From Spirochaetia bacterium (GTDB lineage: Bacteria; Spirochaetota; Spirochaetia; WTKD01; G963693115), in NCBI GenBank assembly GCA_965196605.1, contig CBDAKK010000003.1, positions 16,821 to 80,820 of the forward strand: a stretch of DNA of 64,000 nt. The letters are read 5' to 3'. The position numbers and the translations under genes are program-made. Shown one piece after another: positions 44,538 through 45,236 of this stretch; position 1 is the first letter of the stretch, and the number at the start of each line of letters is the position of its first letter. The notes below the pieces were generated by a model. The model saw only the letters and a list, made by a program, of their open reading frames with translations. It did no database searches and was not told the DNA's origin.

Positions 44538-45236
44538 TCAACCAATGCATTGTGCGTTTCTGCATTGTCCTTCTCTAGCGTTACCGCATACCACGTACCC
44601 CCCCACGCTATTAATATCAAATTCCTTAGTGCTCTCATTCCAAAGTACTGCTACCTTCCCTGCTGGATTTTTGATATTCCTAAGGTTATATCCGCTAAAA
44701 TCTTTTCCTAACTTCCTCCCTATTTCTCCAATTACTTCTTGCTTATCAAAACTTTTAGATGTCTCGCTATATTCCTTACTCACTCTTACAATCGCTGGAG
44801 CTTTATCACTCGAATTTATCCCAATAACTAGCAAATACGATGCTCTCTGCTCCTTGTACTTCCCTTGCGTCCCTGCTTTATTCACTATAATCTTGAAAAT
44901 CCCGGGCATCAAACCAAAAAGCTGTAGCCTCTTTCCTTGTTTATATTCTGCTTCTTTTGCCTTATCATCACCTATCGTTAGGTCAGGGGTATTTCCTGAA
45001 GATACATTTGCAACCTTCACAGAAACTCGAAGCGGCGCTTTGTCATCAGCATCAACCGTTACCTTAAGATCCTGCACAAATATATTGTTTATTTCCGATA
45101 ATCCCTTCACCACTGTTTCTTCTTCAAACTTAAATGTCGTCCCTTCGGAAACAGCTTTTGTATTTGCGGGTACGTCATCTGGGTTCTTTGGTTGCTTTTG
45201 GAGGGCTTGCAATGGTGGACATCCCAATAAAAACAA
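44538..45236 (-). CDS. N-terminal lipoprotein segment of the giant repeat protein, currently out of frame with the body
   Basis: TTG start. In-frame upstream codons read KVKIFLISSVVL-FLLGCPP (classic lipoprotein signal plus lipobox). Its last 100 nt overlap the start of ORF 42911..44638 in the +1 frame across the G7 tract. Confidence 0.55.
   Translation of the reverse strand: MFLLGCPPLQALQKQPKNPDDVPANTKAVSEGTTFKFEEETVVKGLSEINNIFVQDLKVTVDADDKAPLRVSVKVANVSSGNTPDLTIGDDKAKEAEYKQGKRLQLFGLMPGIFKIIVNKAGTQGKYKEQRASYLLVIGINSSDKAPAIVRVSKEYSETSKSFDKQEVIGEIGRKLGKDFSGYNLRNIKNPAGKVAVLWNESTKEFDINSVGGYVVCGNAREGQCRNAQCIG
44598..44604 (-). other. homopolymeric G7 tract (C7 on the plus strand) at the junction of the lipoprotein N-terminal ORF and the repeat body
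   Basis: The upstream frame reads AGC GTG GGG GGG TAC. The downstream frame reads GCG TGG GGG GGT ACG. A G6 tract would fuse the two, giving ...SVGGTWYAVTLEK. Confidence 0.8.

Follow-up and report, generated by a model that had tools for sequence, protein, structure and literature searches.

The window that we analysed is a stretch of 64,000 nucleotides from a Spirochaetia bacterium. On its minus strand, in the interval 37514-45506 between a LolE-like permease and a histidine phosphatase, lie four fragments of one very large gene (Table 1). When three lesions are repaired, the fragments become a single ORF of 2510 aa, which consists of a unique head of ~510 aa, six repeats of ~272 aa and a unique tail of 365 aa. 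All three ORF-breaking lesions fall within this one 7.5-kb gene. In fragment 2, genuine coding begins at a run of seven G residues (the tract, lesion 1), and past an 11-bp deletion (lesion 2) the fragment ends in an out-of-frame tail. Fragment 4 covers the remainder of repeat 4, then repeats 5 and 6, and finally the 365-aa unique C-terminal region; its last stop is TAG 37750-37752.

Table 1. Features of the giant gene and its upstream region, with positions in the window.
Feature	Position	Strand	Basis
Sigma-70-like match TTGACG, 17-nt spacer, TATATT (10/12)	45349..45377	-	consensus match only
Shine-Dalgarno-like AGGGA, 8 nt upstream of ATA 45290	45299..45303	-	putative, from spacing
Signal-peptide coding region (ATA)KVSSYIKVKIFLISSVVLFLLGC, lipobox LLGC at 45219-45230	45219..45290	-	sequence reading, putative function
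Fragment 1: 232-aa ORF, unique N-terminal region and 19-aa out-of-frame tail past the tract	44538..45236	-	
Tract-containing module, ~110 aa	44504..44837	-	paralogous module alignments; AlphaFold2 model
G7 homopolymer (C7 on plus strand), lesion 1	44598..44604	-	P0012 and module alignments
Fragment 2: 575-aa ORF, remaining unique N-terminal region and repeat 1	42911..44638	-	
Six tandem ~272-aa (~815-bp) repeats, DNA identity 72-91% among copies	38848..43729	-	
Lesion 2: 11-bp deletion ATACGGCGACG between GCGACG direct repeats	42930..42941, gap 42935/42936	-	paralogue comparison
Fragment 3: 769-aa ORF, repeats 2, 3 and most of 4	40645..42954	-	
Lesion 3: in-frame TAG for CAG	40645..40647	-	paralogous copies
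Fragment 4: 964 open codons (listed ORF 935 aa, GTG 40557)	37750..40644	-	

TRF made no call on the tandem repeats, because their ~815-bp period exceeds its limit. Each repeat ends in one of two alternative variants of ~30 aa, either VKRNGxTISAKGGPGTATIRRRLR... or VRINAHGVINATAPYVGIIKRQSKSTN, and the order of the variants along the array is not phylogenetic, an indication that the repeats may have recombined within the gene. None of the four fragments gave a match above threshold in Pfam or NCBIfam, and a comparison of the ~95-aa module with solved structures yielded no convincing match. Besides one close homologue, the relatives found for the protein family are few and distant, and one of them is a BspA-type LRR protein. 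We regard a family without a Pfam or NCBIfam model as only a mildly interesting by-product.

The tract is the place where the two minus-strand frames swap. As the earlier note had proposed, a G7 run is present here when the sequence is read directly. The coding-strand reading is CGTGGGGGGGTAC, and the minus strand runs across the tract as ...AAT AGC GTG GGG GGG TAC GTG.... The overlap between the 232-aa and 575-aa ORFs, which lie in different frames, had been put at ~100 nt and measures 101 nt, with the tract inside it. Compared to an in-frame G6, in which GTG GGG GGT encodes Val-Gly-Gly, the observed G7 is a +1 insertion. The predicted fusion of the two frames was reproduced by removal of one G in silico, which gives ...EFDINSVGG-TWYAVTLEK.... 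The head frame runs into a stop after 244 codons with G7 and after 230 codons with G8.

The fused frame agrees with a continuous homologue. An exhaustive HMMER search, covering 1.84 billion representative proteins, returned a single close relative, P0012, which is 1868 aa long, shows 57% identity and is encoded on a 1.14-Mb contig (NCBI/ENA genome). P0012 was found only by this exhaustive search; word-indexed protein searches gave no relative beyond the gene's own fragments or P0012 itself. No relative was recovered from genome contigs scanned with the fused protein, or from metagenome contigs in a protein-guided scan with the alignment of the gene and P0012. In the fused query, residues 37-779 are matched by P0012 without a break. 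At the junction, P0012 is a single ORF that aligns without a gap (FKIERVGEAWYGV in this gene versus FDINSVGGTWYAV in P0012), and a longer view of the pairwise alignment is gapless as well (FDINSVGGTWYAVTLEK versus FKIERVGEAWYGVQFGS). Two distant relatives with 21-27% identity, P0014 and P0015, likewise cross the junction in the HMMER search. In the alignment of the gene with P0012 (A1), the first ~300 columns, which correspond to the head with its tract module, show 26-38% identity, and the columns from 300 onwards show 63-79%. This mosaic is consistent with an N-terminal region that may be fast-evolving or may have been exchanged.

Further support for the fusion comes from paralogy within the protein. 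A BLASTP comparison of the fused segment with the rest of the protein gave alignments that cross the junction (best E = 2e-6), and the repeat-module profile matched fused residues 163-251 with E = 1.4e-5 after one iteration. The tract-containing module is split between the ORFs, with its first ~80 residues encoded by the 232-aa ORF and its last ~30 by the 575-aa ORF. The AlphaFold2 model of the fused module (pLDDT 78, pTM 0.69) places the junction in confidently predicted strands. In the alignment of 17 modules, only one column is invariant, and it corresponds to the first Gly in the tract-encoded V-G-G. Judged from these comparisons, the fused frame is real biology and its ancestral state is G6 (GTG GGG GGT), because both the intact homologue and the paralogous modules place the frame swap on the run itself.

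The tract is followed by two further lesions. The earlier note had described the repeat body as a single ORF, which does not hold, since the body is split again by the 11-bp deletion (at ~42935/42936) and by the in-frame TAG. The 11-bp gap is seen in comparison with two paralogous repeat copies (near 40505 and 39690), and P0012 is unbroken at this site (GGPGAATIWRRLKATKTHSAS). At lesion 3, the fragment reads RLS*SSVAWGT versus RLSQSSVAWGT in the paralogues, with CAG in all five of the other repeat copies, and P0012 is intact here too (LSQSSVAWGT). Hence, P0012 is continuous at all three lesion sites. Tract slippage can reverse neither the 11-bp deletion nor the nonsense codon. With G6 and the remaining lesions, the product is only 786-792 aa of the ~2510 aa, cut to this length by the 11-bp deletion.

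The lipoprotein signal at the 5' end raises a second difficulty. The signal and lipobox reported earlier are present as a motif (KVKIFLISSVVLFLLGC), but no ATG, GTG or TTG stands ahead of the signal peptide. Direct reading yields a basic n-region, a hydrophobic h-region and a lipobox (K-V-K-IFLISSVVLF-LLGC; the lipobox pattern applied was [LVI][ASTVI][GAS]C), and hence a putative N-terminal signal of a bacterial lipoprotein, the substrate of Lgt and LspA. However, the stretch from the preceding in-frame stop to TTG 45236 contains no ATG, GTG or TTG, and a usable initiation codon ahead of the signal peptide was not found. TTG 45236 as a start would give only MFLLGC, and the signal peptide is translatable only from ATA, for which ATA 45290 and ATA 45272 are the sole candidates. 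The AGGGA and the promoter-like match suggest that ATA 45290 may formerly have been an ATG, where the total of sigma-70-like matches in the region equals that in shuffled sequences. The proposal that G6 would provide the giant protein with its export signal therefore lacks support on two counts, the early end of the product and the missing canonical start.

The genomic context of the gene was compared with that in a relative. The nearest available relative is the Spirochaetia MAG OZ245332.1, whose neighbour genes are 64-79% identical. It was the only match when genome contigs were scanned with the LolE-like neighbour (68% identity). Gene order in this MAG matches that of the window over the stretch prfB-FtsY-LolCDE and matches again at the histidine phosphatase. 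The same slot (11294-12775) contains an unrelated 490-aa ORF encoded on the other strand, and the giant gene is absent, from which it follows that the giant gene is accessory and dispensable, and sits in a variable slot.

Two of the gene's own proteins, P0001 (44538-45212) and P0002 (42911-44545), were found with their frameshift-derived tails in identical form on a second contig of 299,798 bp. The other window proteins for which we checked this all occur on one contig of 209,485 bp only. Probably, the 5' ~2.3 kb of the gene is present in the same genome a second time with identical sequence. The window proteins that were checked (RecG, the PcrA-like helicase, LolD and others) are singletons at 90% identity among ~15 billion proteins, and the partners of FtsY in its 90% cluster are fragments of 34-49 aa only. 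The host, whose genome is not among the GTDB species representatives, is a member of a very poorly sampled spirochaete lineage.

Three ORF-disrupting lesions, seen against an intact homologue and intact paralogues, are characteristic of a pseudogene. We consider it rather probable that an accessory surface-lipoprotein gene has recently become a pseudogene here, and that G7 counts among the three or four independent hits that inactivated it. The ancestral gene would have extended on the minus strand from ~45290 to 37750 and would have encoded a surface lipoprotein of ~2510 aa with a signal peptide and lipobox. In its head, Val-Gly-Gly would by chance have been encoded as GTG GGG GGT, giving a G6 run. 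Replication slippage would then have lengthened the run by one G (G6 to G7), with a shift of frame as the result, while the 11-bp deletion between the GCGACG direct repeats and the CAG to TAG nonsense mutation would each have arisen independently. The original ATG was probably lost and is now ATA. The tract could revert to G6 at the modest rate of a short run, which would restore the truncated ~790-aa product only. We infer the direction and order of these mutations, the loss of the start codon and the lack of expression from the present state of the gene.

The recent loss of the gene would resemble known homopolymer-slippage pseudogenes of bacterial accessory surface and adhesin genes. In common with these, the gene has a +1 in its longest run and other, independent inactivating mutations; a homologue elsewhere is intact, and the gene is located in a variable interval flanked by conserved genes. 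It differs only in the size of the gene (~2510 aa) and in belonging to a family with one close relative. Against a pseudogene speaks that the 2510 codons are fully open save for the three lesions and that the repeats look well conserved. This implies either that inactivation was very recent, or that some of the lesions are assembly or polishing artefacts of a repeat-rich gene. It also counts against a pseudogene that G7 meets the lower cut-off for poly-G tracts and that poly-G phase variation, located in promoters, is documented in treponemes (PMC7864442). Moreover, a truncated ~790-aa lipoprotein may be toggled by the tract, with ATA as a possible weak start.

An alternative explanation might be a genuine slipped-strand switch, OFF at G7 and G8 and ON at G6 and G9, that would control the truncated ~790-aa lipoprotein, or the giant protein in lineages free of the other lesions. 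We consider this unlikely. Its appeal lies in the geometry, which is exactly that of translational phase variation with G6 restoring the ancestral frame, and in the product, since surface-type repetitive lipoproteins form the usual phase-variable class. The geometry of a contingency locus, as put forward in the earlier note, stands in so far as a one-base indel parts the lipoprotein-signal head from the body. The switch function lacks support, because the downstream lesions are irreversible by slippage. An alternation between full-length and truncated product that depends on tract length was not found, given the 11-bp deletion, the TAG and the absence of a canonical start. Hence, a contingency switch that supplies the export signal to the giant protein is not supported.

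The tract itself also does not exceed chance expectation. The sense strand of the gene contains 28.8% G, and a G run of at least 7 appeared in 30% of first-order Markov simulations of this strand (P ~0.30). In the window, two G/C runs of at least 7 were observed versus 1.3 expected, which gives no enrichment of long G/C tracts. Nor is the tract conserved, since the sole close homologue has V-G-E-A at this position, which encodes G5 at most. Thus, P0012 and the window counts revealed neither the conservation nor the over-representation of the tract that would point to phase variation. Coding constraint and codon choice can explain the tract, since the one invariant Gly in the 17-module alignment is encoded there. 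A DNA-pattern scan of metagenome contigs for G6 and G8 variants, using the tract flanks with a variable gap, gave no matches. The identical G7-derived protein sequence on two contigs counts against a switch.

Tract length can be compared with what is known from other bacteria. PhasomeIt applies a lower cut-off of 7 or more for poly-G/C, and in C. jejuni NCTC 11168 every poly-G/C tract of at least 8 repeats varied between longitudinal isolates (PMC6321876). The same source cautions that mutation rates below 1e-5 are possible for tracts at the cut-off (PMC6321876). The observed G7 reaches this cut-off, which favours a switch, but is just at it, and the presumed in-frame G6, the ON length, lies below it.

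The other long G/C runs of the window belong to an intergenic palindromic repeat. This element occurs in two 172-nt copies (19147-19318 and 19692-19863) that are 89% identical. Each copy opens with a G6...C6 palindrome, GTGGGGGGAGTGTCCCCCCAC (19146-19175 and 19693-19720), with a C run (C6 or C8) behind it. Close to the copies lie polypyrimidine/polypurine stretches and a hairpin of 21 nt without mismatches (19323-19366).

Intragenic poly-G/C phase variation, as in hmbR/hpuAB and pgtA of Neisseria and the phasome of Campylobacter, shares with our locus a G run in the 5' part of a surface-protein gene, where the gain or loss of a single base decides whether the body shares the frame of the start and signal peptide. 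In contrast, the tract here would be ON only at G6, is not conserved in P0012 and lies in a region where such tracts are not enriched. Moreover, the ON state leaves the protein unrestored, with two irreversible lesions and a missing canonical start. The poly-G tracts of Treponema pallidum (tprE/G/J, tp0126, tprL) have in common with our tract a spirochaete host, a putative surface antigen and an effect of poly-G length on expression, and this documented length variation is in favour of a switch. The T. pallidum tracts consist of 7-11 G or longer, are located in promoters, act on transcription and vary within isolates (PMC7864442). In contrast to these variable promoter tracts, the tract here is intragenic and has seven G. 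T. pallidum is only distantly related to the host, whose best neighbour-gene match is 68% to a Spirochaetia MAG.

Another possibility is that G7, and possibly the other lesions, are errors of sequencing, assembly or polishing, and that the true gene is intact with G6. This, too, seems improbable to us. Homopolymer length errors are common, and a repeat-rich gene with six copies of 72-91% identity, together with a possible second copy of the 5' 2.3 kb, favours mis-mapped polishing. That the remainder of the 2510 codons is perfectly open fits this explanation as well. However, the window contains 48 A/T runs of 7-9 nt inside intact long ORFs. Apart from the giant gene, there is no broken gene in 46 kb of coding sequence, and RecG, PcrA, RF2, an aminoacyl-tRNA synthetase and the TRAP transporter genes are full-length. 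The programmed +1 frameshift of prfB is a known feature and serves as an internal control of sequence accuracy. Its canonical site GGAGG CGT CTT TGA C is present on the minus strand (53956-54030), upstream of the prfB ORF (52921-53994), and the short upstream ORF begins at ~54030. Because the A/T runs, the housekeeping genes and the prfB site are all intact, pervasive homopolymer error is unlikely, although mis-polishing of this repeat-rich gene may still have occurred. The three lesions are, moreover, of different types (a +1 insertion in a run, a deletion of 11 bp and a C-to-T substitution), and only the first is typical of errors. The tract lies in the unique head, outside the tandem repeats, with no other copy in the window.

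Two further candidate split genes in the window, at 23098-24985 and 30270-31927, were rejected. They are separate genes, HTH_25/LolA and DctQ/DctP, respectively, with over-extended ORF starts.

It is also conceivable, although we think it very improbable, that the locus is a system of two layers. The tract would then switch a ~790-aa lipoprotein started at ATA, and the open downstream repeats and the second 5' 2.3-kb copy would be silent donors for recombination. Likeness to the antigenic-variation systems tprK and vls is proposed for this silent-donor reading only.

Least probable of all is a bypass at the level of expression, in which +1 slippage of the ribosome with tRNA-Gly on GGG GGG G, or transcriptional slippage, would produce some fused protein. 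As in prfB-type frameshifting, a +1 shift on the run would yield the correct protein, here exactly the G6 product (VGG-TW), and this genome does use the canonical +1 site in prfB. Yet, the features of a programmed frameshift were not found at the tract: the A site holds neither a stop nor a slow or rare codon (the next 0-frame codon is TAC), a separate upstream stimulatory element is lacking, and P0012 is in frame and needs no shift. The downstream lesions would still truncate the product, and known transcriptional slippage requires longer A/T runs.

Were the tract a genuine contingency switch, a new spirochaete lineage and a giant repeat lipoprotein would join the known cases of intragenic poly-G phase variation. 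Instead, the evidence most likely points to an ordinary slippage event in a short run, among several mutations that have struck an accessory gene in the course of its loss. A slippage frameshift in an accessory gene is an ordinary event of a kind already known. For genome scans, this shows that two frames meeting at a homopolymer do not suffice to identify a switch, and that other lesions, the start codon and the conservation of the tract in a homologue should be checked as well.
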